A stretch of DNA of 64,000 nucleotides, from positions 1,676,538 through 1,740,537 of the forward strand of contig WLWN01000001.1 in assembly GCA_012103575.1 (NCBI GenBank), in the 5' to 3' direction. A program made the translations under genes and the position numbers. This DNA comes from Kiritimatiellia bacterium. Its GTDB lineage: Bacteria; Verrucomicrobiota; Kiritimatiellia; WLWN01. Below the pieces are notes generated by a model. It had not been told where the DNA came from, did no database searches, and was given only the letters and a program-made list of their open reading frames with translations. Below, piece after piece: positions 4,942 through 51,510 of this stretch. Numbering within the stretch: the first letter of the stretch is position 1; every line of letters begins with the position of its first letter.

Positions 4942-4945
4942 AAGA

Positions 4946-6151: not shown

Positions 6152-6173
6152 AGAACAAAGAATTTGAAAAAAA

Positions 6174-10976: not shown

Positions 10977-11047
10977 TTTTAGATTGGTTACTGGTTATCG
11001 GTTTTTTATGATACCATTTCCTGACAACCAACAACTGATAACTAACT

Positions 11048-12337
11048 ATGCAATGGTTTCTCTATAATACCCTCTTTGTAATCGGTTTTACGCTTATGCT
11101 TCCCCATTTCTTATACCGAATGTGTAAGCGTGGAGGGTATTTCAAGGATTTTGGACAACGTTTGGGTCTTTATGATGCGGATCTACTTACCCGGTTTAAA
11201 CAGAATAAAAGGATTTGGGTACATGCAGTCAGCGTGGGGGAAGTTTTTGCTGGGTTACGTTTAATGCAAGAGATACGCGCCCGCGTTCCGAATAAACGGT
11301 TTGTTCTTAGTGTTACAACCTCTACCGGGCATGCAATTGCCAGAAAACAGTTATCTGATGCAGATGACTTAGTCTACTTTCCGCTTGATTTTCCTTTTAT
11401 CATTAAAAGGGTTCTGAATTTCCTTCACCCTGAAATGATCATTTTGGTTGAAGCAGAATTTTGGCCTAATTTAATACGAAAGGCTAAAGAAAAAGACATA
11501 CCTCTTGTTTTAGTAAATGGTCGGATCTCAGATTCCTCTTATCGAGGATATTCTAAATTACGCATATTTACCAAAAACATTTTAGGATTAATAAACCCTA
11601 TCTTCGTGCAGAGTCCGGGAGATAAAAAGAAGCTTATAAATCTGGGGGCTCCAGAAGAACAGATTCATGTGATAGGCAGCGCTAAATATGATGTGCCCGA
11701 GCAAGAAATAGCTGGCGAAGAAAAGGCAAAAGAAGTGTTGCACACTGCCTGTATTTCTGACGATGCGGTTATTTTGTTAGGAGGATCTACGTGGGAAGGG
11801 GAAGAAGAGGCCCTCGTGCACATCTATAAACGACTAAAGGAAGATTACCCTTTGTTAACCCTTATACTAGTTCCACGTCATGCTGAACGGTCGGAGGAAG
11901 TGATGAAAACGATTCAGATTGGAGGATTACGAGGGATGCGTCGGACTGATTTGGTGCGGTTAGATTCTGTTTCTGAAGAGAAGCCGGATGTTTTATTGGT
12001 TGATACAACCGGCGAACTGAAACATTTTTATGCGTGTGCTGATATTATTTTTGTGGGTAAAAGTCTCACCCAGCATGGAGGACAGAATATTATTGAACCG
12101 GCATTATATGGAAAACCGATTTTGGTAGGTCCGAACATGGAGAATTTTCCTGTAGTGATGCAAGACTTTCATGATGCTGATGCTATTTGGCAAATAAAAA
12201 CTAAAAAGGATCTTCAAGAGGCTGTCAGATCTTTGCTCCAAAATTCAGATCTGCGCTCAAAATATGGGGAAAATGCAGCTCGGCTCTTGCAAGAAAAACG
12301 GGGTGCGATCCGTGAAACCGTAAATAGGTTTTTATAG
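11048..12337 (+). CDS. waaA: 3-deoxy-D-manno-octulosonic acid (Kdo) transferase
   Basis: N-terminal membrane anchor, WVHAVSVGE motif, and a length (429 aa) and overall pattern typical of WaaA/KdtA. Confidence 0.85.
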   Translation: MQWFLYNTLFVIGFTLMLPHFLYRMCKRGGYFKDFGQRLGLYDADLLTRFKQNKRIWVHAVSVGEVFAGLRLMQEIRARVPNKRFVLSVTTSTGHAIARKQLSDADDLVYFPLDFPFIIKRVLNFLHPEMIILVEAEFWPNLIRKAKEKDIPLVLVNGRISDSSYRGYSKLRIFTKNILGLINPIFVQSPGDKKKLINLGAPEEQIHVIGSAKYDVPEQEIAGEEKAKEVLHTACISDDAVILLGGSTWEGEEEALVHIYKRLKEDYPLLTLILVPRHAERSEEVMKTIQIGGLRGMRRTDLVRLDSVSEEKPDVLLVDTTGELKHFYACADIIFVGKSLTQHGGQNIIEPALYGKPILVGPNMENFPVVMQDFHDADAIWQIKTKKDLQEAVRSLLQNSDLRSKYGENAARLLQEKRGAIRETVNRFL

Positions 12338-12398
12338 ACCTTGCCATCTTTTAGCGGGAATATGAGAAAGCCACGGATAAATGGCTACAAAATTTTTA

Positions 12399-13838
12399 TC
12401 AAATAGCGAAAAACATGGTGATGACAACCAATACTGCGATGATATAGCTTTGCTTATCTTTTACGGCAAATTCCACGGGATCTTCTATCATTTTCTCTCG
12501 CCCAACTAACAACCAGATTCGACAGATCCAATATAAAAGGACCAGACACATCAACCACAAGTATTGAGGACGGCGATACAAGTCCCCTCCCCCACCCGTC
12601 ATACTGTTAATATACAAAGCTAAGATTAATACAGATAAAAAACCGCTTATAACACCAAAATGCGATAACATCTGCAAATCATGGGGATCATAGCCACGGC
12701 CCTTGGTAGTATCTACACCTTTATTTGTCTTATAATGAAGAGCGACATATCGTTTCGCAATCCCCAGACTAAAAAATAGAAAAACAGAAAAGGCTAACAG
12801 CCAAAAAGAAACAGGCACTTCCGCCGCAAGCCCTCCCGAATACATACGAATCGTATAAAAAAAACTCAACATAATAATATCGATTAATGCAATGCGCTTC
12901 AGATAGATCGAATATCCATTTGCCAAGATAAGATAGATGAATACAGCTAGCCCCAAAAAGAGTGAAACAGAAAACGCAACAGACAAGCCAGCCATTAAAA
13001 GAAAGATGAATAAACAAAATCCCCAAGCAATCGGTACATCACTAGCGGCCAATGGTCTCTTCCGTTTTTCAGGATGAACACGATCCGCTGTAAGATCTAA
13101 CAAATCGTTTACAATGTACACACTCGATGCACACAGCCCAAAAGCAAAAAAACCAAAAAAAGCATTCAAAAGTTTATTGAAGTCTGTAATCAGATGAGCA
13201 GCAATAATAGGAACAAAAAGTAAAAGATTTTTGACCCATTGTTGAAGCCGAAGCACACGAATCAATGTTTTTAGCGTAACAGATTTGGTTTCGAAAACAT
13301 CCGTCACAGACACTATTTTGCTCACCTGACGTTGGAAATGCGAAGATCCTACGACAATAGCCGAATGGGCATGTCGCCAAATGGGCACATCAGATTTAGC
13401 ATTTCCTATATAATCATACCCCCCTCTTCCAAACCGATCATCCAGCACTTTTTGCTTTTTAACACCCTTTAAATTAATCGTTTGATCACTCGCTAGCACA
13501 TCGGAAAAAAGGCCCACTTCATCTGCAATCGACCCAGCAATTTGCACATCTGAAGCAGTCACCAAAATCAAAGTCCGGCCCTTTTTTTTTTGCGTCTCTA
13601 AATAGGACAAAACTTCTAAACGATAAGGAAGGGTTTGGGGCTCTATCGTTACTCGCTTCGCCACTTCGTGTTTAAAAGACGCTCTACCTTTTGCCAGCCA
13701 AAAAGGAAGAAACAACACGTAGAAAATTTTTTTCTTGATTAGTAAAAGCAAAGACTCCCAAAGCATATCTGTCTTGAGTAGTGTCCCATCCAAATCTATA
13801 CACAAGGGGATGGCTTTAGATGTCTCTTCTTGAGTCAA
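12399..13838 (-). CDS. HAD-like phosphatase domain fused to a UbiA-family polyprenyl/phosphoribosyl transferase
   Basis: N-terminal LCIDLDGTLLKTD (HAD motif I) and ILVTASD. The C-terminal multi-TM part carries NDLLDLTADRVHPEKRKRPLA, the UbiA Asp-rich motif. Confidence 0.7.
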   Translation of the reverse strand: MTQEETSKAIPLCIDLDGTLLKTDMLWESLLLLIKKKIFYVLFLPFWLAKGRASFKHEVAKRVTIEPQTLPYRLEVLSYLETQKKKGRTLILVTASDVQIAGSIADEVGLFSDVLASDQTINLKGVKKQKVLDDRFGRGGYDYIGNAKSDVPIWRHAHSAIVVGSSHFQRQVSKIVSVTDVFETKSVTLKTLIRVLRLQQWVKNLLLFVPIIAAHLITDFNKLLNAFFGFFAFGLCASSVYIVNDLLDLTADRVHPEKRKRPLAASDVPIAWGFCLFIFLLMAGLSVAFSVSLFLGLAVFIYLILANGYSIYLKRIALIDIIMLSFFYTIRMYSGGLAAEVPVSFWLLAFSVFLFFSLGIAKRYVALHYKTNKGVDTTKGRGYDPHDLQMLSHFGVISGFLSVLILALYINSMTGGGGDLYRRPQYLWLMCLVLLYWICRIWLLVGREKMIEDPVEFAVKDKQSYIIAVLVVITMFFAI

Positions 13839-13878: not shown

Positions 13879-15042
13879 GGTGGACTTTCTAATATGACAC
13901 GCCTATAGAAGACAAAAAAAAGAGAAAGACATGGAACAAATCAAGAGTAGTATTCATCCCCGAAAAGGCAAGCATTTGACACAGAAAGAACGGATCATGA
14001 TTGAAACAATGCTCAAAAACCGAGGACGTCCTTTGGAGATAGCCAGCTATCTGGGAAGGCATCGTCGAACCATAGAGCGCGAAATTAAACGTGGGGAGGT
14101 AGAGCATTTCGATACAGAGCTGCGAAAGAAGAAAGCATACAGCAGTGATCGAGCCCAGGAACTTCATGATCTAAATGCGACGGCCAAGGGACCTGAGCTT
14201 AAGCTTGGAAAGCATCATGAAACGGCCGTGTTTATCAGCGAGCACATTCTTGTTCACAAACGCTCACCCGATGTGGTTGCTCCTTTGCTTAAACAAGAGC
14301 AGAGACCTGCAGCGGTGAGTACAAAAACGCTGTATACCTATATTGACCAAGGTCTCATCCCGGGGGTGAGCAACGAGTCCCTATGGGAAAAACGAAAACG
14401 GATAAAACGAAAAAGACGTGCTATTAAGCGGGTTAAAAAGCAACATGCCCGAAGGACCAGTATCGAAAAACGACCTAAGACCGTAGAAAAACGCGAGGAA
14501 TCTGGGCACTGGGAATTGGATTTGATCGTCGGCGGAAAAGGAACTTCAAAACCGGTTTTAATGACGTTAGTAGAAAGAAAGACCCGAATGCTAAGGGTGA
14601 GAAAACTTTCGGATAAAACACAGGCATCGGTTCTGCAGGCCCTCAAAGCGATCGAAAGATCGATGGGAGTTGGCCCATTCAGATCGATGTTCAAGTCGAT
14701 TACAGCCGATAACGGGAGCGAGTTTCTCGACGTGGAGCAGATGGAACGTTCCGGATTTAGCAAAAAGAGACGTGTTAAACTCTATTATGCTCACCCGTAT
14801 TCTTCCTGGGAACGAGGCTCCAACGAAAATGCCAACCGTATGGTTTGTCGTTTCGTCGCCAAAGGAGACAACATCGGAAAATATACCATCGACCGTATTG
14901 GTGAGATTGAAAAATGGATTAACAACTATCCTCGCAAGATCCTAGAATACAAACCCGCACAGGAGTGTTTCGATTTGGAGATCGCCGCATGAACAGAAGC
15001 TCTCAGGTCCATTTTTTGCGGCATTTAATTTTACAATCCACC
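13879..15042 (+). mobile_element. IS30-family insertion sequence, type B, copy 1
   Basis: Second copy at 42077-43284. The shared right end is ...GCATTTAATTTTACAATCCACC. The left terminus keeps only GGTGGA of the IR; about 45 bp are missing relative to copy 2. Confidence 0.75.
13931..14992 (+). CDS. IS30-family transposase, type B (353 aa)
   Basis: HTH (ERIMIETMLKNRGRPLEIASYLGRHRRTIEREI), HWELD, DNGSEF, ERGSNENANRM, NNYPRKILEYKP. It carries a 15-bp insertion (IKRKR) relative to the copy at 42188. Confidence 0.85.
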   Translation: MEQIKSSIHPRKGKHLTQKERIMIETMLKNRGRPLEIASYLGRHRRTIEREIKRGEVEHFDTELRKKKAYSSDRAQELHDLNATAKGPELKLGKHHETAVFISEHILVHKRSPDVVAPLLKQEQRPAAVSTKTLYTYIDQGLIPGVSNESLWEKRKRIKRKRRAIKRVKKQHARRTSIEKRPKTVEKREESGHWELDLIVGGKGTSKPVLMTLVERKTRMLRVRKLSDKTQASVLQALKAIERSMGVGPFRSMFKSITADNGSEFLDVEQMERSGFSKKRRVKLYYAHPYSSWERGSNENANRMVCRFVAKGDNIGKYTIDRIGEIEKWINNYPRKILEYKPAQECFDLEIAA

Positions 15043-15136: not shown

Positions 15137-16182
15137 CTGCAGACTCAACTTACAAGTGCAAAACCGAAGCTGTCCATCATTTCTTTGGGCGTTCTATATT
15201 CTAAGCATTTTCTCGGTCTATTATTCAGTAACTCCACAGCCATCTCAACTGAGCGGAGCTGCGGGCAGCAAAGTCGGTTTTCTTCGGGAAAAACTGGCGA
15301 AGCAAACCATTCGTGTTTTCGTTGCTCCCTCTTTGCCAAGGGTTTCTCCCTTCAGCAAAGAAAATGGGGGTTGCTATTTTTTTCTGTAGTTTAGCATGGC
15401 TGGCAAACTCCATGCCATTATCTACAGTCACCGTTTTACAGGGGAGCCCTGAATCAGCGAACTGAGGTACGGAACGGTTGACCGATTCGGCATTGCATCG
15501 AGGTAAAAGATCGGCGATGAGATATCGAGTCGCTCGATCTACTAGAGTGACTACACAGGCCTCTTTTCTCGTTTGGCCCTGAATAGTGTCACCTTCCCAA
15601 TGGCCTGCCACCTTGCGACTTTCACCCTCTTCGGGGCGTTGGTCAATCATCGTTTGGTTGTGTATACGTGAATGGCTTTTCCGAGTCGCTCGTTTTTTCT
15701 TTCCGGGGCCACGCAGGTATTTTCGGTAGCCAGCCCCTCTTGGACTGTACAAGTAGCGGTAGATCGTCATTCGACTGATGGGAGGGTCACCTTCTAGCTT
15801 TCTTCGACCTTCAACCTGTTCTGGAGACCAATACTTCGCCAGGAGAGTCTCCACTTGTTCTTTGCTAGCTCCCATCACTTTTTGAGGCTTTCGAGCTAGC
15901 TGTAATCGGCTTTGAGCCAGGCCATTTGCGGGTCTTGGGTAATAGCGGCCACGGACTCGATTACGGCGAAATTCGCGCCAAATAGTCGAGGGGGATCGGC
16001 CCAGGTGACGGCCAATTTGAGATAAGCTATATTTTTCTTTTAGCATCTGGGCTATCACTTCTCGTTCATAACGGTTTAAATGTTCGTAGGTTCGTGGCAT
16101 TCTATGTTCTCCTTTGGGGAGGGTCAGATACCCAAAGAATGAACTATGCTGCGGACCTTTGCACTTGTATTGTTACTCTACC
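15137..16182 (-). mobile_element. IS30-family insertion sequence, type A, copy 2
   Basis: Aligned end to end with 105-1152. It is 1 nt shorter (CAGCCATCTCAAC versus CAGCCCAGCTCAAC). Confidence 0.85.
15145..16100 (-). pseudogene. IS30 type A transposase with a C-terminal frameshift
   Basis: A 1-nt deletion near 15243-15250 splits the ORF into 15225-16100 and 15145-15339. The C-terminal LNNRPRKCLEYRTPKE is now out of frame. Confidence 0.8.
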
Positions 16183-17223: not shown

Positions 17224-17379
17224 CCTGGAATGTAGCAGAACGGGTGCAGACCTATACGCACCCTTTGTGGAGGGTGTAGGACAAATTTATTGAGACGCAG
17301 AGGTTCCTAGGCTATATCGGTCCCAAATAGTGCATAAAAGTCGCATCAAAAATATTCATGTCATTGAAGCATATATTGA

Positions 17380-19037
17380 CCTGAATCCGTTAGCTATCGC
17401 TTCGGAAGGCGTTTTGGGGCTCAAAAGCTGAAAATTTTTTCCTTGAGATGCTCGCTTTTGGGCGGATTGGGACCGGCAAGTATCACCCTGATGAATTTTT
17501 TGAGCGTACAGGTCAGATTCACTCTGATTTGGCCATTTTGGGGCGTAGGCCTCCTTGGGCAGTCGCCTTAGAGTATTGTTAAAGGTGCACGGAGGGCTAT
17601 GCGAAGGAATGGGCAATATCTTGTATCACTTCAAACCAGCGACAACGCTTGCCAAAGTGAAGTTCAATTCGTCCGGCGTGGCGGACCAATCGAACCGCGC
17701 AATAAACGATATTTTTGAGAACCGTTTTGATTCGCCAGCGCGGGATGTTGATTTTCTGCGGGGCAAGCCCAGCCCGTTTGATGACCTCTTGGCCAAGACC
17801 GCGCAATAGGTTGAAGGCCACCATGGCGCATAACAGAATAATCTTATTGGCACAGGGTCTCCCCGAAGGCAATCGCTCAACATCAAGATCGCTTTTGAGT
17901 TCACTGTGGTACTGCTCGCTGGGGCCATGTCCATGATAGAGATCTAGCACCGTCTTGGCACGACAAGAGAGGTTCGTCCACCAGGTGTTCACCTCAAGTT
18001 TAGGAACCAAAAGTTTCTGACCATCGATATCGATGGTGCGTTCAATCACTTCGAAGGCCACCGGGACACAAGGGTGGTTTTGGTCACCACCGGGATGGAA
18101 ATGATCGAAAAAGCCTGTGTAAACGTTCTTGCCTTCACGACTGTCTTGTTTGTCTCCAACTCGGCGTGCAAGGGCCAGCATTTGTTCAGGACATTCGCGG
18201 CGAGGATTTCGCTTTACGATAAAATAATGATCCCCAAAAGCGTCGAAGTTATCGGCCGCAGCGTTGCCACTATCAAGCCGAAGCAAACATTTTCCACCCA
18301 GGCCCAGGGTTTGGAGCGTTTCAACGCTGCGGGCAATAAACGCGGTCGTTCCCGACTGACAATGTTGTTTGCCGGGTCGAAGTTCGCACTCAAGCATGTG
18401 GCCTTGAGTGCCCACATAGGCAAATATCGGGGCGTAACCATCATGGCCCTTATAGGTGTAGGAAACGCCTTCTTTCGAAGAGCCTGAGTGATCCAAAGGG
18501 CTCACATCGATATCGACGGGAACAAGATCAAGCCCTTCGACATCTACCTAGCCAAAGGGGCCCGAGGAAAGAAGTTCGGTGTTGAGTTTGCGTAGCCCCA
18601 CATGGGTTCTGGCTGGGGGCAGGTCGTCGAAACGACGTCGGAACACCGGCTCAGAGGCTACTTTTTTAACTCCCCTTTTTAAGTCTAAAGGCATTCATAA
18701 AAATCTCATCACCCCGGTACAGGTCGATATCATTGAAATCGGTTCGACCGTTGCAAAGTAAGCCGATCTGGGTAAGGAGGATCTCCCGATCAGAGATCGC
18801 ATCGGAGCGGCGTGGTTGAAAATTGGAGGGAAGAATCCGTTGAGCATGATCCTCAAGCAGCAGGCCGCAAAGATGATTTCCGCTTGTGCTGTTGAGTTCG
18901 CTCTTGCCAGTCTTTATTTTATATTGTTTCATATACACACCTGTTGGGGTGGGGTTGTTTGTTTGAATACGGGTATGCTCCCCGCTTTAGCCCAACAGGT
19001 AATGAAAAATCGTCAGATTTTATCTGACGGATTCAGG
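17380..19037 (-). mobile_element. IS1380-family insertion sequence, copy 1 (1658 bp)
   Basis: Termini are CCTGAATCCGT(C/T)AG inverted repeats. A perfect 5-bp direct repeat ATTGA flanks it at 17375-17379 and 19038-19042. A second 1658-bp copy lies at 56074-57731. Confidence 0.9.
17597..18938 (-). pseudogene. IS1380-family transposase, interrupted (frame change after ...AFRLKKGS, in-frame TAG at 18548-18550)
   Basis: The N-terminal 90-aa ORF (18666-18938), a middle segment KKVASEPVFRRRFDDLPP...GPFG*VDVEGL, and the C-terminal ORF 17597-18505 (SYTYKGHDGYAPIFAY...RLDSGNAAADNF) are colinear but not in one frame. Confidence 0.8.
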
Positions 19038-19198: not shown

Positions 19199-19275
19199 TG
19201 GTGGCGAAGGTGGGACTCGAACCCACGACACATGGCTTATGAAGCCACTGCTCTAACCGACTGAGCTACTTCGCC
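19199..19275 (-). tRNA. tRNA-Met (anticodon CAU; elongator or Ile2-type, not initiator-like), CCA encoded
   Basis: Reverse complement is GGCGAAGTAGCTCAGTCGGTTAGAGCAGTGGCTTCATAAGCCATGTGTCGTGGGTTCGAGTCCCACCTTCGCCACCA. It folds as a clean cloverleaf with 7-bp acceptor stem GGCGAAG/CTTCGCC. The anticodon stem has no run of three G-C pairs. Confidence 0.9.
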
Positions 19276-19324
19276 ACAAAAAACATATAACCGTAAGGAA
19301 GTATAATAGGCTTTGTCAATACTC

Positions 19325-19360
19325 AGCCATTCTAATTTTGATTTCAAAATTAGAATGGCT
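19325..19360. promoter_or_regulatory. A/T-rich palindrome upstream of tRNA-Met, next to a TTGACA hexamer
   Basis: AGCCATTCTAATTTTGATTTCAAAATTAGAATGGCT (15-bp arms), about 50 nt upstream of the tRNA 5' end. Related elements occur upstream of tRNA-Val and the SRP RNA. Confidence 0.45.
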
Positions 19361-19545
19361 CGTTCTTTGTTGTTGGTTCTTCTTTAATGGGAAGTTATTT
19401 TTTTAGTACAGATCAAATATGATCATGAACATATATAACCTACATTCAGCGATAAGGAACAGCCCGTCGTACCCATCCCTTGATCCGCCTAGCATTAGGT
19501 AAAGAATCTTGACCCACTAATAGATAACTAATAACTATTCCCAAC

Positions 19546-27611: not shown

Positions 27612-28271
27612 TTGAAGATATATCTTAAAAGAATACTTGCCCTGACTTTTTTTGTTTCTTTAACCACAAACGGTTTGTCTGCTGATGATGGCGATTGGCA
27701 AATATGGTTTGATCAAAGCATGGAGGGTAAGCTTTCTTCATCGTTAAAAACAAAGATGAATCAGCAATTAAAGTGGGGTGACCATGCGGGAGAACTGGTT
27801 GAATATAACGTTGAGCTTGGTTTAACGACAAAGCTGAGTAGTTGGTTTGACCTGGCCCTTTTCTATCGACAACAATATGAAAAAAAGGGAGCCGATTGGT
27901 TAGAAGAAAACCGTCCTCACCTAAACGGGACCATTAAATGGAAGTGGAACGACATCTCCTTTTCAGATCGTAGTCGTGTTGAACTTAGGATTAAAGAAAA
28001 TAAAAACGATATTGTACGGTATAGGAATAAAATAACCGTTACATGCCCAAAGACCTGGACAAAATTCAACATTCAAAAATATATCGCTGACGAAATTTTC
28101 ATCGATTCCGACAAAGGAGAGCTTAATCGAAACCGTTTGTATGTGGGGTTAAAAGCAAAGCCTCATGAACATCTTAAAGCCGATGTATATGGGTTGTGGC
28201 AGACTTCAGAAAAAAGCGACGAATGGACTGATGTTTACGTTGTGGGAGCAAAGTTAGGCATTGTTTTTTAG
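27612..28271 (+). CDS. DUF2490-like outer-membrane beta-barrel protein
   Basis: Signal peptide, alternating beta-strand pattern, aromatic C-terminal residue (..GAKLGIVF), and the W-x-W pattern typical of DUF2490. Confidence 0.5.
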   Translation: MKIYLKRILALTFFVSLTTNGLSADDGDWQIWFDQSMEGKLSSSLKTKMNQQLKWGDHAGELVEYNVELGLTTKLSSWFDLALFYRQQYEKKGADWLEENRPHLNGTIKWKWNDISFSDRSRVELRIKENKNDIVRYRNKITVTCPKTWTKFNIQKYIADEIFIDSDKGELNRNRLYVGLKAKPHEHLKADVYGLWQTSEKSDEWTDVYVVGAKLGIVF

Positions 28272-28325
28272 AAGAAGTTCAGGTTTTCTGAAAACGCTAC
28301 TTGGACCTTCGTCAAAAGCGCGAAT

Positions 28326-28426
28326 TCAAGTAGTAAGTGCAATATTCTTTGAGATAAGAGAAATGAAAACTTTATTGAACATTTGGTTAGGAGTTTTGTA
28401 TCCACGGGTTTTTCTGGGTCTATTAT
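28326..28426 (-). pseudogene. C-terminal 33 codons of a third IS30-family transposase, truncated by IS630
   Basis: The minus strand reads NNRPRKTRGYKTPNQMFNKVFISLISKNIALTT*, the IS30 C-terminal signature. It abuts the IS630 end at 28427. Confidence 0.6.
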
Positions 28427-29416
28427 TAGAGCGCTTCACGATTGAGGTGTCGCGATGTAGCACGAAGAAAACCAGCCGATTACCTCGTCGGGAGAAACCT
28501 CTTCGAACGCTTGTGTGAGCGCTTCAGATAGTTCCTGCGGGCTGCAAGGCTGCCCAACCGATTCTTTATCTTGCCCCACATTTTTTCAATGGGGTTGGAA
28601 TCGGGGCTGTAGGGTGGAAGGAATCTTACATGGGCCCCACATGACTCAATGAGTTTAATGACCTTGGGATTGTGATGGACGCGAAGATTGTCCATGATGA
28701 CGATGTCTTCAGGTGAAAGAGTCGGGAGAAAAACCCGGCGAATATATTCTCCAAAAACAGCCGTGTCTGTCGCCCCCTCCCTCTCCATGGCCGCTGTTGT
28801 TCCGTCCAGGCGGACTGAAAAAATCAAGGTGGTGGTACACCAATGTCCATGAGGCGTTTTGGCAAAAAGCCTGTTCCCGCCCAACGCCCGGCCCCGCAGA
28901 CAAGTCATATTCGTTTTCGCCCCGGATTCATCAATAAAGACAAGGCGACTTGGATCAAGTTTGGCTACCTCTTGGATCCACTGCTTTCTCAAGAGATTTA
29001 CATCCGCCCGGTCTTGCTCGCTGGCGTGAAGCGTTTCTTTTATACCGGCAGCCCAACCGATTCAACGCCCGCTGTACGGCCATGATCGACCCCTTCACGC
29101 CGCTCATGTTCTTGAGTTCTTCAAGCGTTGCATCGGGATGTTTGCCCCCCAGTTGAGCCAACGCCTTGAGCTGCTCGCTGTAGAGGGCCTGACGATGCCC
29201 ACGCGGTCGGGGAGCGGTCTGTCCGGTTTCGTTGAAACGAGAGAGCCCACGCTGAAACGTTCTAAGATCTACACGATAAGAAGATACGATATCGGCCTGG
29301 GAACCTTTGCCCATTTTGTAGGCATCTATCGCACGCCGCCGGATTTCTGCTGTTGCTATACTCATGTCATGGAGCATAGATCTTCTAAAGAGGCATTTCA
29401 ATCGTTAAATGCTCTA
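28427..29416 (-). mobile_element. IS630/Tc1-mariner-family insertion sequence, copy 1 (flanked by TA)
   Basis: The ends are defined by comparison with 45003-45937. The TIRs are TAGAGCGCTTCACGATTGAGGTG and TAGAGCATTTAACGATTGAAATG, with a TA at both junctions. Confidence 0.85.
28480..29401 (-). pseudogene. IS630-family transposase split into two frames (HTH part 28955-29401, DDE part 28480-28992)
   Basis: The N part ends ..LNRLGCRYKRNAS. The DDE part (ETLHASEQDRADVNLLRKQWIQEVAKLDPSRLVFIDESGAKTNMT) is in the +1 frame. Copy 2 is in frame at this point because of a 4-nt difference. Confidence 0.7.
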
Positions 29417-29926
29417 GCTTTGCCTTGGCCATTGAGCTCACGAAATTTGTATATAGCAACAGTACTTTCTTTACTGCTCTCTTGGTATGCAAAAAATGCA
29501 GCTACGTATGGCGACCGAGTCCAATCTAGTAAAGGCGTCGGAAAACCATGATGCCGAATATAAACCATAAATCCGTAATTCTCAGGAGATGAAGGTTCAT
29601 CTCTATTCTCAAATACTGTTTCCCAGTTTTGATCTGTTAGCGATTCAAATGCCGCGATTGTCGGCTTAAGGATCTTTGTGTTGTATTCTATGATTGCAAG
29701 TAGTTCATCGTTTCGTCTTTCAAGTGTCGATTCAAGTTTCCACGAAGCACATTTATGGCCCCTAAAGAGGAGCTCGGAAAAATAGTAGTCCGCTTTGCTA
29801 AGGCGCTGCTCACCCTTTTGTAATTCCTTTTAGCCCAAATGGTTCGTGCAGAAAACCGCGTTTAACTGACGGATCCAGGATAGAGTTATCTGGAATTAAT
29901 TCGGTATATCTTTTTGACATAGACAT
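29417..29926 (-). pseudogene. FRG-domain protein, N-terminal part; disrupted by a half MITE near codon 17 and cut by IS630 at 29416
   Basis: MSMSKRYTELIPDNSI, then the MITE, then ..EQRLSKADYYFSELLFRGHKCASWKLESTLERR...YIRHHGFPTPLLDWTRSPYVAAFFAY. The FRG and HyG(L/F)PTxLLDWT motifs of the FRG domain are present. Confidence 0.65.
29813..29879 (+). repeat. Half copy (right arm only) of the 163-bp MITE
   Basis: CCCTTTTGTAATTCCTTTTAGCCCAAATGGTTCGTGCAGAAAACCGCGTTTAACTGACGGATCCAGG matches the right half of 44474-44636. The left half is absent. Confidence 0.8.
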
Positions 29927-30005
29927 AATGATTATTCAGTCTATTTGACTTTAATAGAGAATATTAACGAATTTTAAGATTTTGTCAAATTGAAAAGAAC
30001 GATCT

Positions 30006-30993
30006 ATGAAGGCAACTTCAAAACCTAAAAAATTGCTTGATCAGGTTCGAGAAATCTTGCGAATCCATCATTATTCCATTCGAACGGAGCAGTCTTATGT
30101 AAAATGGGTCAAGGATTATATTTTTTTTAACGGGAAGAAACATCCTCAAGAAATGGGAATTCCTGAAGTCGAACGGTTTTTGACCCATCTTGCTGTCAAT
30201 AAAAATTTGGCTTCAGGAACCCAAAACTAGGCGTTAAATGCCCTTGTTTTCCTCTACAAAAAAGTGTTGAGAAAACCTTTGGGTGAAAAGATCAATGCGG
30301 TTCGAGCGCGGAAGAAACAGCGATTACCGGTTGTTCTAAGTAAAGAGGAAGTTAGCCGCCTTTTAAAGGCTATGTCTGGCGTCCATGAGCTTATGGCACA
30401 ATTGATGTATGGCTGTGGGCTTCGGGTTATGGAAGTATTACGTTTACGGGTACAGGAGCTAGATTTTGATCAGGGGCTGCTTCTGGTTCGTCGCGGTAAG
30501 GGCGATAAAGATCGCTCTACTATCTTGCTGCCCGAATTACATGTGCCTCTGAAGGATCACGTAATCTTTGTCAGAAAACTGTATGAACAAGATGTAGAGA
30601 ATGGTACTTGCAATGTATATCTTCCTCATGCCCTTGCACAAAAGTATCGAGGGGGGCCCCGCGCATGGAACTGGCAATATGTATTCGCGTCCAAAAGCCT
30701 CTCTGTTGACCCTCGAGCAGGTGTAAGGCGTCGTCACCATATGGATGAAAGCAGTATTCAAAAATCGGTGGTGCATGCTGCTTGTTTGGTATAGATCCCC
30801 CAAGAAAGTTACCTGTCAGACCTTACGCCATTCTTTTGCTACTCATCTACTCGAAGCAGGGACCAATATTTGCATGGTACAAGAGCTTTTGGGTCATAAA
30901 GATGTAAAAACAACACAGATCTATACTCATGTTATGAAAAGAGACTTTCATCAGATCAAAAGCCCGTTAAGTATGTTGCTTCAGGCTACCTGA
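30006..30993 (+). pseudogene. intI: Integron-type integrase (IntI), degraded
   Basis: IRTEQSYVKWVKDYIFF and THLAVNKNLASGTQN*ALNALVFLY are present. So is the IntI-specific insertion [38 protein letters not shown], plus [13 protein letters not shown] and [16 protein letters not shown]. Lesions: TAG at 30228, TAG at 30792, a frameshift in the C5 run near 30797, and H-to-Q in the HxxR box (CQTLRHS). Confidence 0.8.
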
Positions 30994-31017
30994 TTGAAAA
31001 ATTGATAGGATTAAAAA

Positions 31018-31254
31018 ATGATTACGAAAGCTACAAGCTGTACCCTTGTTCTGGTCTTGAGTTTGTGCTGCTCTTGTTCAAAGAAATGGTATGTAAACGA
31101 TCAAGGTGTTACTGGCGATATTTTTACGTGTATCCCGGGCGACAACACAAAAGGAACAAGCAGTAAAAAGAAACCTTTTGCAATAGTTAACGTTACTGTC
31201 GAGCACACACGATTTTCAACAAATAAAAAGGGAACCATAAAATCTTCAGTATGA
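31018..31254 (+). CDS. Small hypothetical lipoprotein
   Basis: 78-aa ORF with signal peptide and lipobox-like LVLSLCC. No recognisable domain. Confidence 0.35.
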   Translation: MITKATSCTLVLVLSLCCSCSKKWYVNDQGVTGDIFTCIPGDNTKGTSSKKKPFAIVNVTVEHTRFSTNKKGTIKSSV

Positions 31255-31448
31255 CCCTCCCCCGGACATCCCTCTTATCCCGGGGCATACCTCTGCGCTC
31301 AACTGGATTATCTGGGTTCAACAACGCAACGAATAATTGCATCTTATAATCGACTTAGGGTATAAACACATTTCGATAAATGTTGAACTGGCATCTTGTT
31401 TTCGTGGAGAGTGGTCTTATGGACCGGTCACATCTTTAAAATACCAAC

Positions 31449-34400
31449 GTGTTACAAGGAGTACGGGTGAGCAAACAACCTTTTGTCCATTTACATTTTC
31501 ATACTCAGTACAGCCTTTTGGATGGAGCGTGTCGTGTCAAAAGCGCCATGGAAACGGCACAAGCCCAGGGTATGTCTGCGGTCGCGATTACCGATCACGG
31601 TGTATTGTATGGGGCTGTTGATTTTTATAAGACGGCTAAAAGTTACGGGGTGAAGCCGATCTTGGGGTGTGAAGTGTATACGACGCCTGAAAATACCGGT
31701 ATGACAGAACGAAAAACCGGTCGCGATGGCAGCCAATCCAATCATCTTGTTCTGCTTGCTGAAAACGAAGTAGGTTATCAGAACTTGGTACAACTTGTAT
31801 CCAGAGCACATTTAGACGGATTTTATTATAAACCTAGGATCGATAAAGCCCTTCTTAGAGAATATAACGAAGGGCTTATCGGGTTATCCGCTTGTTTAAA
31901 AGGCGAGATTCCCGAGCACTGCGTGCGTGGCGATGTCGATGGGGCGGTCCAAAAAACCGAAGAATTTACTGATATCTTAGGCAAAGACAATTTCTACATA
32001 GAACTTCAGGATCACGGTATTCAAGAACAGCGTATTGCCAATGAGGGATTGCTTGAAGTGGCTAAACGTACAGGTCTTCCTCTTGTGGCTACCAACGATG
32101 TCCATTATATAGCGCCTGAACATCACACCGCCCACGACGTGATGATTTGTTTGCAAACCCAATCCGTTATGAGTGACCCAAATCGGATGAAATACCAGTC
32201 CGATCAGTTTTACATGAAAACGCCTGAAGAAATGTGGGACCTTTTTAGGGAATATCCTGATGCATTAAAGAATACATTGGCGATTGCAGAGCGCTGTAAC
32301 GTTGAACTTCAGCTCGACAAAGAATTCCATTTTCCTCTTTATCAACTCCCGGAAGGTGAAAATCAGAAACATTATTTAGCCCAGGTTGCCAAAGAAGGGT
32401 TGAAGTATCGGTATGGTGTTGAGGATGTTGATCATCCAAAAAATGAAGAAGAAAAGAAGATTGCAGATCGATTTTACCATGAACTAAACGTGATCGAAAA
32501 AACAGGGTTCATCAATTATTTCCTCGTGGTCTGGGATTTTGTGCGTTTTGCCCGGGAACGCCACATTCCTGTTGGGCCAGGTCGTGGATCAGGAGCGGGA
32601 AGCATTATGGCCTATGTATTAGGCATTACGGGTATTGATCCATTACAATACGATTTAATTTTTGAACGTTTTTTGAATCCTGATCGTGTTTCACCCCCTG
32701 ATTTTGATATTGATTTCTGCCAATCTCGACGGGATGAGGTTATTGATTACGTTAAAGAAAAATATGGACGCGATAGCGTGGCTCAAATCATTACTTTCGG
32801 GACACTAGGGGCAAAAACGGTTATTCGTGATGTGGGTCGTGTATTGGAAATACCCTTCAATGAATGTGATCGCCTCGCCAAATTGATACCTGAAGAACCT
32901 GGTATGACCCTGGAAAAAGCGCTTCAACAGAGTCCTGACTTTAAGAAAGCGACCGAAACCGAAGAACATGCAAAACGTATCATGCAACATGCACGTGTTC
33001 TTGAAGGGCTGCCTCGCAATCCTGGAACGCATGCCGCAGGCGTTGTTATTGGAGAAAAACCATTAGTAGAAATTCTTCCTCTTGCGCGTGATAAAGACAA
33101 AGAAGTAGTCACACAATTTGAGATGAAACCGTTGGAGCAAACGGGTCTTTTAAAAATGGATTTCTTGGGTCTTAAAACGTTAACCGTTATTCAAGAAACC
33201 ATTGACCACGTTAAAAAAACAAAAGATATCGACCTTGATATGGAAACCTTGCCCATGAATGATGAGCCTACTTTCGCCTTATTAAATCGGGGCGATACCA
33301 TTGGGGTGTTCCAAATTGAAAGTCAGGGGATGCGCGATTTGCTCAGAAGAATAGGGCTCACCTGTTTTGAGGAGATTATTGCGATGATCGCCTTGTTCAG
33401 ACCCGGACCTATGAATATGTTGGATGATTATGTAAACCGTAAACACGGAAAGGTGAAAATCAAATATGACCACTCTCTCCTTGAACCGATTCTTAAGGAA
33501 ACATATGGCGTGATGCTCTATCAGGAGCAGGTTCAGCGGGCTGCCAATGTGTTAGCCGGTTATTCGTTGGGTGAAGGAGATATTTTGCGTCGTGCCATGG
33601 GTAAAAAAACTATGGAAGAAATGACGCAGCAACGAGATAAATTTGTGAAGGGCTGCGCTCAACATAATAAAATTAATGCAAAAACTGCAGAAAAAATCTT
33701 TAACAATATAGAACGATTTGCCGGGTACGGTTTTAATAAATCACATAGCGCGGCATACGCTATTCTTTCTTACCAAACCGCTTTTTTTAAAGCCCATTAT
33801 CCTTCAGAATTTATGGCCGCTTTGCTTTCTTCAGAAATGGGGAATGCGGATAAGCTTCCTATGCTTATTGCAGAAGCACAGGAAATGGAAATTGAAATGT
33901 TTCCCCCAGATGTTAACGAAAGCGAAGTGCGGTTTCGTCCCGTTATTAACGGCATGCGGTTTGGATTGGCCGGTGTTAAAAACATTGGCGTGGGTGTCGT
34001 CGAATCGATTATTAAAGAGCGAGAAATGGATGGGCCCTTTAAAGACGGGTTGGTTGAATTTTGCAGTCGACTCGATTCGAAGGCGAATAATAAGAAGGTG
34101 CTGGAAAGTTTGGTTAAATGTGGTGCGTTTGATTACACAAAACAGTCTCGTGGACGCCTTTTTAATGGGATTGAATTTGCCATCAATCGGGCCTCAGAAG
34201 CGAACAAAGATCGTCAGTCTGGACAAGGTTCTTTGTTCGATATCTTGGAAGACAAAAGTGAAGAATTTAGGAAGGATGAATTACCCCCAGCAGAACCTTG
34301 GCCGGCTAGCCAGATGCTTTCTGCAGAAAAAGAGTTGCTTGGTTTTTATATTTCCGGTCATCCACTAACAGCCTTTGAATGGACATTAACCCATTACAAC

Positions 34401-37655: not shown

Positions 37656-37682
37656 TATGACCCAGATGCGCCTCAAATAACT

Positions 37683-37718
37683 AGCCGTTCTAATTTTGAT
37701 TTCAAATTTCAAATGGCT
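37683..37718. promoter_or_regulatory. Degenerate copy of the A/T palindrome upstream of tRNA-Val, followed by a TTGACT -35-like hexamer (37724-37729)
   Basis: AGCCGTTCTAATTTTGATTTCAAATTTCAAATGGCT, then GTGAC-TTGACT-16 nt-TAAGCT, with the tRNA 5' end 16 nt further on. Confidence 0.45.
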
Positions 37719-37767
37719 GTGACTTGACTTCGTAAAGCAGACCGTTAAGCTACCCCTCTTATTTTTC

Positions 37768-37842
37768 GGGCGGTTAGCTCAGCGGGAGAGCGGCTGGTTT
37801 ACACCCAGTAGGTCACAGGTTCGAATCCTGTACCGCCCACCA
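37768..37842 (+). tRNA. tRNA-Val (anticodon UAC), CCA encoded
   Basis: GGGCGGTTAGCTCAGCGGGAGAGCGGCTGGTTTACACCCAGTAGGTCACAGGTTCGAATCCTGTACCGCCCACCA. Acceptor GGGCGGT/ACCGCCC, anticodon loop TTTACAC, T-loop GGTTCGAATCC. Confidence 0.92.
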
Positions 37843-41288: not shown

Positions 41289-41543
41289 GATATCCTCCGG
41301 GTTGTGGTTAGTTGTGGAGGCTACGGCCCGAGGTGGCTATACAATGGATTCTGTCCTGGGGGAGTCGCCTGGAGCGCTCGCCAATGAATGATGGCCAACT
41401 CAGACCCAAACTTCGTATGGGGCACAAGGCACCAATATCTTTAGGGGGGCTTAACTGCCGTAGCTTTCATGACATTTACACCTTACCGGACTCCAGTTTC
41501 AACCCTGAATGATCCAGCAAAGAGACCATGCTGGTGGCGAAAC
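41289..41543 (-). ncRNA. Candidate bridge (guide) RNA region in the 5' non-coding end of the IS110-family element
   Basis: A 255-nt non-coding leader lies upstream of the recombinase ATG. A 10-nt segment TTCTGTCCTG (41349-41358) is repeated 4 nt beyond the recombinase stop codon (39895-39904). The call is inferred from the published IS110 bridge-RNA architecture; I did not fold or model it. Confidence 0.35.
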
Positions 41544-42031
41544 TTCGGGGAGACTCTGTGCCAATAAGATTATTCTGTTATGCGCCATGGTGGCCTTCAA
41601 CCTATTGCGCGGTCTTGGCCAAGAGGTCATCAAACGGGCTGGGCTTGCCCCGCAGAAAATCAACATCCCGCGCTGGCGAATCAAAACGGTTCTCAAAAAT
41701 ATCGTTTATTGCGCGGTTCGATTGGTCCGCCACGCCGGACGAATTGAACTTCACTTTGGCAAGCGTTGTCGCTGGTTTGAAGTGATACAAGATATTGCCC
41801 ATTCCTTCGCATAGCCCTCCGTGCACCTTTAACAATACTCTAAGGCGACTGCCCAAGGAGGCCTACGCCCCAAAATGGCCAAATCAGAGTGAATCTGACC
41901 TGTACGCTCAAAAAATTCATCAGGGTGATACTTGCCGGTCCGAATCCGCCCAAAAGCGAGCATCTCAAGGAAAAAATTTTCAACTTTTGAGCCCCAAAAC
42001 GCCTTCCGAAGCGATAGCTGACGGATTCAGG
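41544..42031 (+). mobile_element. IS1380-family element, 3' remnant (about 488 bp), truncated at the IS110 junction
   Basis: Near-identical to 57244-57731, including the right terminus ..GCGATAGCTGACGGATTCAGG. It encodes only the last ~90 aa of the transposase (..RLCANKIILLCAMVAF...IQDIAHSFA). Confidence 0.85.
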
Positions 42032-42076: not shown

Positions 42077-43284
42077 TGAGAATTGTAATATTAAATGCCC
42101 AAAAGAAGATATTGTAAAACAGGAGTGTTCCATGCCGAAATCTTCTAGATTTAGAAACTCGACAGAAGACAAAAAAAGGAGAAAGACATGGAACAAATCA
42201 AGAGTAGTATTCATCCCCGAAAAGGCAAGCATTTGACACAGAAAGAACGGATCATGATTGAAACAATGCTCAAAAACCCAGGACGTCCTTTGGAGATAGC
42301 TAGCTATCTGGGAAGGCATCGTCGAACCATAGAGCGCGAAATTAGACGTGGAGAGGTAGAGCATTTCGATACAGAGCTGCGAAAGAAGAAAGCATACAGC
42401 AGTGATCGAGCCCAGGAACTTCATGATCTAAATGCGACGGCCAAGGGACCTGAGCTTAAGCTTGGAAAGCATCATGAAACGGCCGTGTTTATCAGCGAGC
42501 ACATTCTTGTTCACAAACGCTCACCCGATGTGGTTGCTCCTTTGCTTAAACAAGAGCAGAGACCTGCAGCGGTGAGTACAAAAACGCTGTATACCTATAT
42601 TGACCAAGGTCTCATCCCGGGGGTGAGCAACGAGTCCCTATGGGAAAAACGAAAAAGACGTGCTATTAAGCGGGTTAAAAAGCAACATGCCCGAAGGACC
42701 AGCATCGAAAAACGACCTAAGACCGTAGAAAAACGCGAGGAATCTGGGCACTGGGAATTGGATTTGATCGTCGGCGGAAAAGGAACTTCAAAACCGGTTT
42801 TAATGACGTTAGTAGAAAGAAAGACCCGAATGCTAAGGGTGAGAAAACTTTCGGATAAAACACAGGCATCGGTTCTGCAGGCCCTCAAAGCGATCGAAAG
42901 ATCGATGGGAGTTGGCCCATTCAGATCGATGTTCAAGTCGATTATAGCCGATAACGGGAGCGAGTTTCTCGACGTGGAGCAGATGGAACGTTCCGGATTT
43001 AGCAAAAAGAGACGTGTTAAACTCTATTATGCTCACCCGTATTCTTCCTGGGAACGAGGCTCCAACGAAAATGCCAACCGTATGGTTCGTCGTTTCGTCG
43101 CCAAAGGAGACAACATCAGAAAATATACCATCGACCGTATTGGTGAGATTGAAAAATGGATTAATAACTATCCTCGCAAGATCCTAGAATACAAACCCGC
43201 ACAGGAGTGTTTCGATTTGGAGATCGCCGCATGAACAGAAGCTCTCAGGTCCATTTTTTGCGGCATTTAATTTTACAATCCACC
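42077..43284 (+). mobile_element. IS30-family insertion sequence, type B, copy 2 (both IRs present)
   Basis: The left IR TGAGAATTGTAATATTAAATGCCC matches the inverted right end GGTGGATTGTAAAATTAAATGCCG. The right end lies 5 bp before the recR start codon. Confidence 0.8.
42188..43234 (+). CDS. IS30-family transposase, type B (348 aa)
   Basis: Same protein as 13931-14992, minus the 5-aa IKRKR insertion and with a few substitutions. Confidence 0.85.
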   Translation: MEQIKSSIHPRKGKHLTQKERIMIETMLKNPGRPLEIASYLGRHRRTIEREIRRGEVEHFDTELRKKKAYSSDRAQELHDLNATAKGPELKLGKHHETAVFISEHILVHKRSPDVVAPLLKQEQRPAAVSTKTLYTYIDQGLIPGVSNESLWEKRKRRAIKRVKKQHARRTSIEKRPKTVEKREESGHWELDLIVGGKGTSKPVLMTLVERKTRMLRVRKLSDKTQASVLQALKAIERSMGVGPFRSMFKSIIADNGSEFLDVEQMERSGFSKKRRVKLYYAHPYSSWERGSNENANRMVRRFVAKGDNIRKYTIDRIGEIEKWINNYPRKILEYKPAQECFDLEIAA

Positions 43285-44438: not shown

Positions 44439-44473
44439 AAATTTGAAAGATAACAAGAGGGCTCTGTCTTTTT

Positions 44474-44636
44474 CCTGGATCCGTCAGTTAAACGTGGGAT
44501 TTCTGTGCGAATGGTTTGGAGGCAAAAGGTTGCAAAAAAACGCAGGCGCACCCGCTGGGTACGTCGAGGCTTTTTTGTAATTCCTTTTGGCCCAAATGGT
44601 TCGTGCAGAAAACCGCGTTTAACTGACGGATCCAGG
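44474..44636 (+). mobile_element. 163-bp MITE, copy A (IS1380-like termini, TSD TTTTT)
   Basis: CCTGGATCCGTCAGTTAAACG...CGTTTAACTGACGGATCCAGG, flanked by TTTTT at 44469-44473 and 44637-44641. The element is a long imperfect palindrome. Confidence 0.85.
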
Positions 44637-44865: not shown

Positions 44866-45002
44866 TTAGGAAGGTCCGGTTGAATTTGGTCTCTCGTAAT
44901 TATCGCACAAGTCCTTTAAAAGCGTGCGAAAACTGTGAACCGGTATGCCTTCATAAGCAGGCTTGAGATAGTTAATCAACTGGATCATCGTTTTCAATAA
45001 CT
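44866..45002 (-). pseudogene. Orphan C-terminal ORF fragment, proposed 3' half of the FRG-domain gene at 29417-29926
   Basis: The minus strand reads (K)LLKTMIQLINYLKPAYEGIPVHSFRTLLKDLCDNYERPNSTGPS*. It is open only in the frame that continues ..ELNGQGKA when the two IS630 flanks are joined over a single TA. Confidence 0.4.
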
Positions 45003-45937
45003 TAGAGCGCTTCACGATTGAGGTGTTGCGATGTAGCACGAAGAAAACCAGCCGATTACCTCGTCGGGAGAAACCTCTTCGAACGCTTGTGTGATCGCTT
45101 CAGATAGTTCCTGCTGACTGCGGGCTGCAAGGCTGCCCAACCGATTCTTTATCTTGCCCCACATTTTTTCAATGGGGTTGGAATCGGGGCTGTAGGGTGG
45201 AAGGAATCTTACATGGGCCCCACATGACTCAATGAGTTCAATGACCTTGGGATTGTGATGGACGCGAAGATTGTCCATGATGACGATATCTTCAGGTGAA
45301 AGAGTCGGGAGAAAAAGTTGTTCCGTCCAGGCGGACCGAAGAAATCAAGGTGGTGGTACACCAATGTCCATAAGGCGTTTTGGCAAAAAGCCTGTTCCCG
45401 CCCAACGCCCGGCCCCGCAGACGAGTCATATTCGTTTTCGCCCCGGATTCATCAATAAAGACAAGGCGACTTGGATCAAGTTTGGCCACCTCTTGGATCC
45501 ACTGCTTTCTCAAGAGATTTACATCCGCCCGGTCTTGCTCGCTGGCGTGAAGCGTTTCTTTTATACCGGGAAACCGATTCAACGCCCGCTGTACGGCCAT
45601 GATCGACCCCTTCACGCCGCTCATGTTCTTGAGTTTTTCAAGCGTTGCATCGGGATGTTTGCCCCCCAGTTGAGCCAACGCCTTGAGCTGCTTTCTGCTG
45701 TAGAGGGCCTGACGATGCCCACGCGGTCGAGGAGCGGTCTGTCCGGTTTCGTTGAAACGAGAGAGCCCACGCTGAAACGTTCTAAGATCTACACGATAAG
45801 AAGATGCGATATCGGCCTGGGAACCTTTGCCCATTTTGTAGGCATCTATCGCACGCCGCCGGATTTCTGCTGTTGCTATACTCATGTCATGAAGTATAGA
45901 TTTTCTAGCGAGGCATTTTCAATCGTTAAATGCTCTA
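45003..45937 (-). mobile_element. IS630-family insertion sequence, copy 2 (internally deleted, defective)
   Basis: It has the same termini as copy 1 and TA at both junctions. A roughly 62-bp internal deletion (near 45318) removes part of the DDE domain. ORFs 45292-45885 and 45012-45278 are fragments. Confidence 0.85.
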
Positions 45938-46231
45938 GTACTCCTCCAAAATTAAATTGGCGAGTTAGGGTCAAATTAGACTGTTCCCAATGACGACAGG
46001 GGCCTTCCACCATCACAGCAACGCTGTGTAGGCATAGAGCCTGGGGTTTCAACCCCAGGAAGACTTGTGCCCTGTAGGGGCACTGTCTATTCTTCAGGGC
46101 GCAATCAGATGTGTTCCTGTTTCATTCCTGGGGTTGAAACCCCAGGCTCTATGCCTTTGTCCCTTTGGGACAATCCATAGGGTCAGTAAATCATTCACCC
46201 CCAATTCGCCAATTTAATTTTGGAGGAGTAC
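45938..46231. repeat. 294-bp TA-flanked foldback element (MITE-like), single copy in this window
   Basis: The 27-bp TIRs are GTACTCCTCCAAAATTAAATTGGCGA(G/A)T. TA lies on both sides (45936-37 and 46232-33). There is a perfect internal 29-bp inverted pair (46031-46059 and 46128-46156) and further hairpins. No ORF. Confidence 0.6.
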
Positions 46232-46377
46232 TAGTGCACGATAAAGTTTACGGTTAAGTGATGAAGAATGAATATATTCGAGTGGGAGCAGATATTTTAA
46301 TCAAACAGGTTCTAAGGTGAGGGTCTTTGGTCAGAAGTCAGGACCACCGTTTTTCTTTCACGCAGCTTGCTGCATGA

Positions 46378-48874: not shown

Positions 48875-49167
48875 GCTGTGCTAGACGGGGAGGTAGCGGT
48901 GCCCTGACTCCCGCGTAAGCGGGATGACCTGCAATCCGCTGTAGCAGGGTTTAATTCCTGAGTAAGATATCAACCTAGGATGATACATGCTATAGATAGG
49001 TGTTGATAGCTAGACCCTATGTGGCGAATACGGGTGAACCCCGTCAGGATCGGAAGATAGCAGCGGTAAGTCATGTTGTTCGGGTACCGTAGTGTGTTCT
49101 GGCTAGAGTCTTGAAATAGTGGTTGTACGCCGATCGTTGGTGTCGAACAAAGGTGCACAGCTTTTTT
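48875..49167 (+). ncRNA. ffs: Signal recognition particle RNA, large (Bacillus/scRNA-type, with Alu domain)
   Basis: 5' GTGCTAGACGGGGAGGTAGCGGTGCCCTG...CCTGCAATCCGCTGTAGCAGGG matches the B. subtilis scRNA Alu domain. The helix-8 motif is GAACCCCGTCAGGATCGGAAGATAGCAGCGGTAAG. The 3' CGAACAAAGGTGCACAGC pairs with the 5' GCTGTGC, followed by TTTTTT. It sits directly upstream of dnaX, as in Bacillus. Confidence 0.88.
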
Positions 49168-51302: not shown

Positions 51303-51318
51303 TGGGGAGACAAATAAT

Positions 51319-51481: not shown

Positions 51482-51510
51482 ATAATCAATAGGAATGTAC
51501 AGATACCCCC

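Follow-up and report, generated by a model that had tools for sequence, protein, structure and literature searches.

An integron integrase pseudogene in a Kiritimatiellia chromosome, probably the relic of a stripped and eroded integron platform

What is left when an integron decays, and how far can its past be read from a broken integrase gene? The question is raised by a tyrosine recombinase pseudogene, intI, in a 64,000-nucleotide stretch of the genome of a Kiritimatiellia bacterium (GenBank assembly GCA_012103575.1, contig WLWN01000001.1, positions 1,676,538 to 1,740,537 of the forward strand). This whole stretch is referred to as the window, and all coordinates are counted from its first letter. 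The original prediction, made from the sequence alone, described a dead integron integrase, a divergently oriented FRG-domain gene in the position of a first cassette and no recognisable attC array, in surroundings overrun by insertion sequence (IS) elements. We consider it probable (about 0.85) that the locus is a non-functional, stripped integron platform resembling the elements known as In0, with a dead integrase and flanks eroded by IS elements. The integrase gene has the following features.

30006..30993, plus strand: integron integrase pseudogene intI, whose repaired form has about 328 codons; assigned by TIGR02249, structure 2a3v and a neighbour-joining tree
30228..30230, plus strand: first in-frame TAG, on the conserved Gln of STQNQAL (alignment A1)
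30630..30743, plus strand: IntI-specific extra segment, ALAQKY...RRRHHM, ungapped against VchIntIA (2a3v) and represented by gap columns in Xer
30792..30794, plus strand: second in-frame TAG, in a column where homologues have other residues, mostly Gly, and no Gln
30797..30801, plus strand: run of five C with a +1 frameshift (one extra C); deletion of one C restores the reading frame
30817..30819, plus strand: CAG codon, which puts Gln where the HxxR box (HTLRH) has its His (alignment A1)

Profile, structure and tree tests were performed on an in silico repaired product, in which the three lesions were joined to give 328 residues. Against the NCBIfam model TIGR02249 ('integron integrase') this product scores 429 bits over the complete profile (1-315 of 315), 164 bits above the curated cut-off of 265, whereas the XerC and XerD models yield about 136 bits and their cut-offs of about 330 are far from reached. 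Pfam detects a SAM-like domain and the catalytic Phage_integrase domain; these are shared with Xer-type and phage-type recombinases and would be in keeping with such an identity. The best match among solved structures is the Vibrio cholerae integron integrase 2a3v (VchIntIA/IntI4; E = 9e-94, residues 11-324), and this alignment is gap-free across the IntI-specific segment (YLPHALAQKY...RRRHHM). At the same segment, three Xer outgroups show 24 + 5 gap columns in a MAFFT alignment, and XerA matches repaired IntI in two separate stretches only, one on either side of it. In an unbootstrapped neighbour-joining tree (BLOSUM62 distances, 26 sequences, the three Xer outgroups included), repaired IntI groups with VchIntIA and metagenomic IntI within the IntI clade, with a long branch to Xer. 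The closest of 8000 database homologues reach 54-61% identity, and those among them that bear a name are integron integrases from marine or sediment lineages; a search for a closer or intact copy found none above 61% identity in the protein database and none above 58% in a metagenome scan. The window does encode a Xer-like tyrosine recombinase, apparently intact, at 10011-10976, which is a separate gene only 28% identical to the pseudogene. With the family cut-offs, the insertion and this separate gene standing against it, a Xer-type or phage-type recombinase in place of an integron integrase is practically out of the question. The original prediction had argued for an integron integrase from the extra segment; that identity, the segment itself and a position within the IntI clade all hold. 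On sequence comparison, 30006-30993 is confirmed as an integron integrase pseudogene, to be filed as an IntI pseudogene rather than an IntI gene.

Frame 0 of intI runs from the ATG at 30006 to the first TAG (30228-30230) and onwards in the same frame to the second (30792-30794), after which the frame moves +1 at the C run (30797-30801) and ends at the TGA at 30991-30993. Further near-invariant positions are altered as well (R289C and P228A; alignment A1). The catalytic set R-K-H-R-H-Y is incomplete: R140, K165, R274, H297 and Y306 are kept, and the His of the HxxR box is Gln. The latter substitution had been counted among the signs of death. It is indeed present, but is weaker evidence because P0045, an apparently intact IntI homologue of 336 aa, has the same Gln (alignment A1); some IntI may tolerate it.

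Could intI still be functional, its stops and frameshift being sequencing errors or being bypassed by TAG read-through and ribosomal frameshifting? Both stops are TAG, the first falls on a conserved Gln, and the protein is otherwise well conserved. Against this, contigs from other metagenome assemblies, retrieved from public assemblies via an orphan open reading frame (ORF) adjoining intI, are 99.97-100% identical to the window, and gene callers split intI on all of them into the same pieces of 74, 171 and 39 residues. The lesions are therefore not the error of one assembly. Of 33 long ORFs in the window, eight end in TAG, which is therefore an ordinary stop, and recoding was rejected for this reason. 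The second TAG, moreover, stands in a column where homologues have no Gln, and R289C, P228A and the His-to-Gln change affect near-invariant positions. A functional intI is accordingly a most improbable explanation. The two TAG stops and the one-base insertion in the C run, all named in the original prediction, were located and recur in the other assemblies; they confirm that intI is dead, as its predicted translation would allow no full-length recombinase. The high profile score and the presence of only three disabling lesions suggest that inactivation was recent.

Within the N-terminal coding part of intI, a 25-nt imperfect inverted repeat was observed at 30160-30219 (76% complementary, 10-nt loop). 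It belongs to a longer AAC..GTT-closed hairpin (30125-30239, -17.8 kcal/mol), whose end coincides with the first TAG. The attC model described below has no match there, and the repeat is probably due to chance.

Does the dead integrase still have cassettes beside it? Candidate attC sites were taken upstream of intI in 31 related loci on public contigs. In the nearest relatives with long contigs, intI is preceded by short genes on the other strand, with attC hairpins of -21 to -36 kcal/mol (DNA fold); attC hits occupy this upstream, opposite-strand position in relatives L085, L087, L095, L096, L126 and L128. Direct-repeat searches in the arrays of the relatives revealed no attC sequence in common. 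An attC covariance model of 58 positions, R1, was built from 20 canonical sites of related integrons; its pair cells hold 83% standard pairs, a share that falls to 67.5% after shuffling and to 24-45% when the register is slid. On 26 held-out integron loci, R1 identified 29 sites with scores of about 14-55 bits, mostly on the strand divergent from intI. A strict scan for the R''/R' consensus was dropped, as most real attC sites of the relatives were missed, and was replaced by R1 and a scan for AAC..GTT-closed hairpins, the latter being a back-up to R1, which misses the atypical sites of relative L085.

Run on the entire 64-kb window with filters off, R1 scores 11.3 bits at best (E = 1.4), at 13428, 16 kb from intI. 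Within 28200-31500 it finds no attC, the best score being 6.5 bits. No AAC..GTT hairpin of -14 kcal/mol or stronger was found in 28272-31466 outside an IS630-family element and the intI coding sequence. The strongest hairpins of the window scan are copies of a miniature inverted-repeat transposable element (MITE) and IS-internal sequence. Its strongest AAC..GTT hairpins (-29 to -43 kcal/mol) were rejected as attC sites, as they are MITE copies about 7 kb apart; the terminal inverted repeats (TIRs) of the MITE reach past the AAC/GTT of these hairpins. No attC site is recognisable on either side of intI, in agreement with what had been claimed for the adjoining DNA.

One relative differs in layout. 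In L103, from a soil metagenome (51% identity), intI lies at 6001-6954 (plus strand) and attC matches lie at 10156-12831 (plus strand), downstream and on the same strand, which points to either an inverted integrase or a separate array. On the corresponding side of intI in the window, two features were noted.

31018..31254, plus strand: orphan ORF of 78 aa, located between intI and dnaE, whose N-terminus is lipoprotein-like
31316..31388, plus strand: 73-bp weak inverted repeat GTTCAAC...GTTGAAC with R''/R' consensus, rejected as attC

The ORF has no homologue besides itself among 5.8 billion clusters and no Pfam or NCBIfam match. Together with the repeat it could form a single downstream cassette of about 395 bp in an inverted-integrase arrangement, closed by a divergent attC that escapes recognition. 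No other perfect R''/R' pair exists in the window, for an expectation of 0.78 per 64 kb; the repeat begins 323 bp past the intI stop and would have a parallel in the same-strand, downstream attC matches of L103. It folds, however, at only -8.6 kcal/mol (DNA fold, z = -2.3) versus -21 to -36 kcal/mol for real sites, and lacks an L''/L' stem at canonical spacing. It is also absent from the R1 list for the stretch that contains it, in which the weakest listed score is 3.2 bits. The interval from the intI stop to the ORF lacks a GTT crossover point, and the arrays of the closest relatives are found on the other side of intI, upstream and divergent. We rejected the repeat as attC and regard a downstream cassette as quite improbable.

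The upstream side, where relatives keep their cassettes, is composed of the following features, ordered outward from intI.

29881..30005, no strand: spacer of 125 bp that separates the MITE from the start of intI, the expected place of attI and promoters
29816..29880, no strand: remaining right-hand 65 bp of a palindromic MITE (164 bp in full), left part deleted (self-comparison of the window, alignment A2)
29417..29815, minus strand: internal fragment of an FRG-domain gene, about 133 codons, both ends lost (Pfam PF08867, PADLOC PDC-S15)
28427..29416, minus strand: complete IS630-family insertion sequence (19-nt TIRs, flanking TA, DDE_3 and helix-turn-helix domains)
28326..28426, minus strand: C-terminal tail of an IS30-family transposase gene (NNRPRKTRGYKTPNQMF...; blastp E = 2e-5 and 5e-3)
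27612-28271: DUF2490 gene, followed by queG, beyond the IS30 tail

The sequences of attI sites are specific to each integron class. An attI was sought in the spacer by aligning the upstream regions of seven related intI genes, and no conservation was detected in 29881-30005. The spacer shows no significant fold. On the minus strand, TTGACA-16-TAATAT at 29988-29961 resembles a promoter and has the direction expected of a cassette promoter, away from intI; matches of this kind are no commoner than in shuffles.

Beyond the spacer, mobile elements take over. The MITE half at 29816-29880 is 98% identical to 44573-44636 and 58518-58582, which belong to full copies elsewhere in the window. The element is considered a MITE because of its 22-nt TIRs (TCCTGGATCCGTCAGTTAAACG) and apparent 3-bp target duplications, and it folds at -29 to -43 kcal/mol. 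The IS at 17372-19037 has a similar TIR (CCTGAATCCGTCAG) and may mobilise the MITEs. Two of the three full copies lie 25-35 bp past the stop codon of an upstream ORF, and the third about 390 bp past one. The IS630 element encodes a DDE_3 domain (E = 6.7e-28) and helix-turn-helix domains, its 19-nt TIRs are 84% complementary and TA is present at both flanks, as expected for the IS630 family; a second copy (45002-45938) is 96% identical. The stretch next to it, 28326-28426, matches the extreme C-termini of the two IS30-family transposases of the window in blastp. The contigs of the other assemblies break at the IS630 element and at other IS repeats. In total, the window holds three and a half MITE copies and two IS630 copies, and its IS load is very high (about 10 kb per 64 kb). 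The elements away from intI are located as follows.

44473-44636, 51318-51482 and 58518-58683: full 164-bp MITE copies with 22-nt TIRs
105-1152 and 15137-16182: IS30-family element, first type, two copies
13907-15042 and 42164-43284: IS30-family element, second type, two copies
17372-19037 and 56074-57740: DDE_Tnp_1_4 element, full copies
41543-42031: DDE_Tnp_1_4 element, partial copy

The picture of a locus overrun by mobile elements is thus accurate, as an IS630 element, an IS30 tail and half a MITE stand beside intI. The IS630 copy by the FRG fragment differs from the other in 62 bp (28734-28795) without counterpart in 45002-45938. Its transposase consists of two overlapping ORFs (28955-29401 and 28480-28992), which could reflect a programmed frameshift or decay.

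What, then, is the FRG fragment? It matches Pfam PF08867 (E = 6.5e-21) and the PADLOC candidate defence family PDC-S15 (E = 2.9e-25, profile positions 34-142 of 254). Like other FRG-domain proteins of these families, it retains the FRGH and HHGFPTPLLDWT motifs; unlike them, it encodes only about half of such a protein, without its own start codon or the C-terminal half. Homologues predicted as complete ORFs have, in most cases, about 210-233 aa and reach past the fragment on either side. At 29416/29417 the right TIR of the IS630-family element cuts off the 3' end of the fragment. At the other end, the original prediction had the gene start 79 bp upstream of intI, at an ATG at 29926 (minus strand). 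This start had to be abandoned: the ATG opens a 38-codon ORF, closed by TGA, that runs through the MITE half-copy in a frame different from that of the FRG homology. As 29816-29880 is an arm of the MITE, the supposed FRG N-terminus is therefore MITE sequence. Annotators should not start an FRG gene at ATG 29926 and should mark intI as a pseudogene.

The claim that the FRG gene has the position and orientation of a first cassette stands in part. The side is right, as the arrays of relatives lie upstream and are divergent, and the fragment lies at most about 190 bp from the intI start, on the side and strand where relatives keep their cassettes. There is, however, no intact cassette gene, since what remains is truncated at both ends, fused to a MITE and lacks an attC. 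Of the properties expected of a cassette, the orientation away from intI fits, and the 3' end has been replaced by the IS630 element and the IS30 tail; any FRG attC would be gone because the fragment lost its 3' half. An attC sought around FRG homologues elsewhere was found in none of eight loci (L088, L089, L173-L178). In the literature we found nothing tying the FRG domain to integrons, and PDC-S15 only in two unrelated papers. That the fragment is the remnant of a cassette is a tentative proposition, with the odds leaning against it.

At one of these loci, L173, the FRG homologue comes last in a series of small genes on one strand (HicB-like, MqsA-like) that lies downstream of polA. A 17-nt motif, CTCTTAATCAGCGGGTT, occurs on either side of it (about 4868-4897 and 5655-5680), the upstream copy in a short stem-loop; the motif is not attC-like.

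How did the locus reach this state? The closest relatives would represent the earlier layout, with attI and an opposite-strand cassette array ahead of intI, and the same side would have decayed here. The spacer of 125 bp, the 65-bp MITE half, the 133-codon FRG fragment, the IS630 element and the tail of about 100 bp from an IS30 transposase, followed by housekeeping genes, would be the outcome. Point mutations would have inactivated intI, and MITE and IS insertions with adjacent deletions would have removed the attI-proximal DNA. We infer both the order of these events and any former array. The description as a chromosomal integron relic overrun by IS elements is hence supported by the dead IntI, the lack of attC and the mobile elements, with the former array as its conjectural part.

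The chromosomal position does not reveal more of this history. Between queG/DUF2490 on one side and dnaE on the other, intI lies in DNA of unremarkable GC content. The DUF2490 protein is NKB24447.1, of a metagenome-assembled genome (MAG) named Kiritimatiellia/Kiritimatiellae bacterium. The best DnaE matches are 63% identical and come from MAGs of Kiritimatiellae and Verrucomicrobiota, and none of the related dnaE loci has intI or a DUF2490 gene nearby.

Several points weigh against reading the locus as an eroded platform. R1 fails on the atypical attC sites of relative L085, and the sensitivity of the search is thus incomplete. The ancestral state of the locus is unreadable, as no relative is close enough (DnaE at most 63%, no intI at related dnaE). 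Without attC or an identifiable attI there is no direct proof of past cassettes, and FRG homologues lie without attC at L088, L089 and L173-L178, so that the FRG gene may never have been a cassette.

These points lead to an alternative that differs from the eroded platform only in its assumed history: a solo integrase that never had an array, that is, a cassette-less In0, next to an unrelated chromosomal or defence-island FRG gene broken by the same mobile elements. No attC occurs in 64 kb, FRG homologues are found outside recognisable cassettes, and In0 elements are common: intI without attC accounts for 51 of the 215 IntI in complete genomes (PMC4889954). On the other hand, the FRG fragment sits on the cassette side and strand of relatives, about 190 bp from the intI start, and has lost both ends, any attC having been lost with the 3' end. 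It belongs to a candidate defence family, and a preprint reports that anti-phage defence systems are encoded by many of the cassettes in sedentary chromosomal integrons (bioRxiv 10.1101/2024.07.02.601686). We hold the solo integrase to be a serious contender, somewhat short of even odds.

Whichever history applies, the eroded platform resembles known systems. It shares with In0 elements (Cury et al. 2016, PMC4889954) a chromosomal intI, flanks without recognisable attC and nearby IS elements. Unlike those, its integrase is a pseudogene and no attI is identifiable; it is a remnant and not a potentially active empty platform. Pseudogenes of intI near some arrays, and frequent IS elements in and around integrons, have been described (PMC4889954). 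In Xanthomonas, inactivation of intI by stops, frameshifts and deletions is widespread according to PMC12444791, which summarises Gillings et al. 2005. As described there, these integrons also have a fixed chromosomal place by a housekeeping gene, but usually retain their cassette array (as frozen arrays or clusters of attC sites lacking integrases, CALINs), whereas the window has no attC and its host phylum is Kiritimatiellota, of the Planctomycetes-Verrucomicrobia-Chlamydiae (PVC) group. With VchIntIA/IntI4 of V. cholerae (2a3v), the pseudogene shares the domain organisation and an ungapped alignment of residues 11-324, IntI-specific segment included. VchIntIA is, however, an active recombinase with an array of well over 100 cassettes, while the copy in the window is broken, has no array and carries Gln for the HxxR His.

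The locus combines both known forms of decay, the In0-like loss of attC and the inactivation of intI. Integron decay of this type is known and ordinary, and the host phylum is the only unusual aspect; no description of integrons in Kiritimatiellota was found in the searchable literature. The locus may serve as a worked example of platform decay through point mutations in intI and MITE/IS insertions and deletions of attI-proximal DNA. It also records an IntI gene in a Kiritimatiellia genome, with little importance beyond correct annotation. A bolder reading, which we think rather unlikely, is that it is the first trace of a conventional sedentary chromosomal integron in Kiritimatiellota, with a candidate anti-phage cassette of the FRG type (PDC-S15), dismantled recently by a burst of IS and MITE activity. 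If true, the host range of integrons would extend to another PVC phylum and FRG genes would join the cassette-borne defence repertoire.

Some observations elsewhere in the window complete the description. Directly right of the second IS630 copy lie a 130-bp inverted repeat (45931-46061 versus 46125-46238, 71%) and a strong hairpin (46047-46139, -24 kcal/mol, perfect 14-bp stem TTTCAACCCCAGGA...). The attC model gives no match to either. A 131-aa ORF at 58098-58493, closely flanked by the IS copy 56074-57740 upstream and a MITE downstream, covers no more than positions 130-233 of the inositol monophosphatase profile (271 positions) and is probably another gene cut by a mobile element. Two stretches of about 710 bp, 1773-2481 and 4269-4975, are 72% identical in direct orientation and probably mark paralogous genes. 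The bacterial large signal recognition particle RNA is encoded at 48876-49160 (111 bits), and tRNA genes lie at 19202-19275 and 37768-37839. Each of the latter adjoins one arm of a 55-bp inverted similarity (19315-19369 versus 37674-37728).

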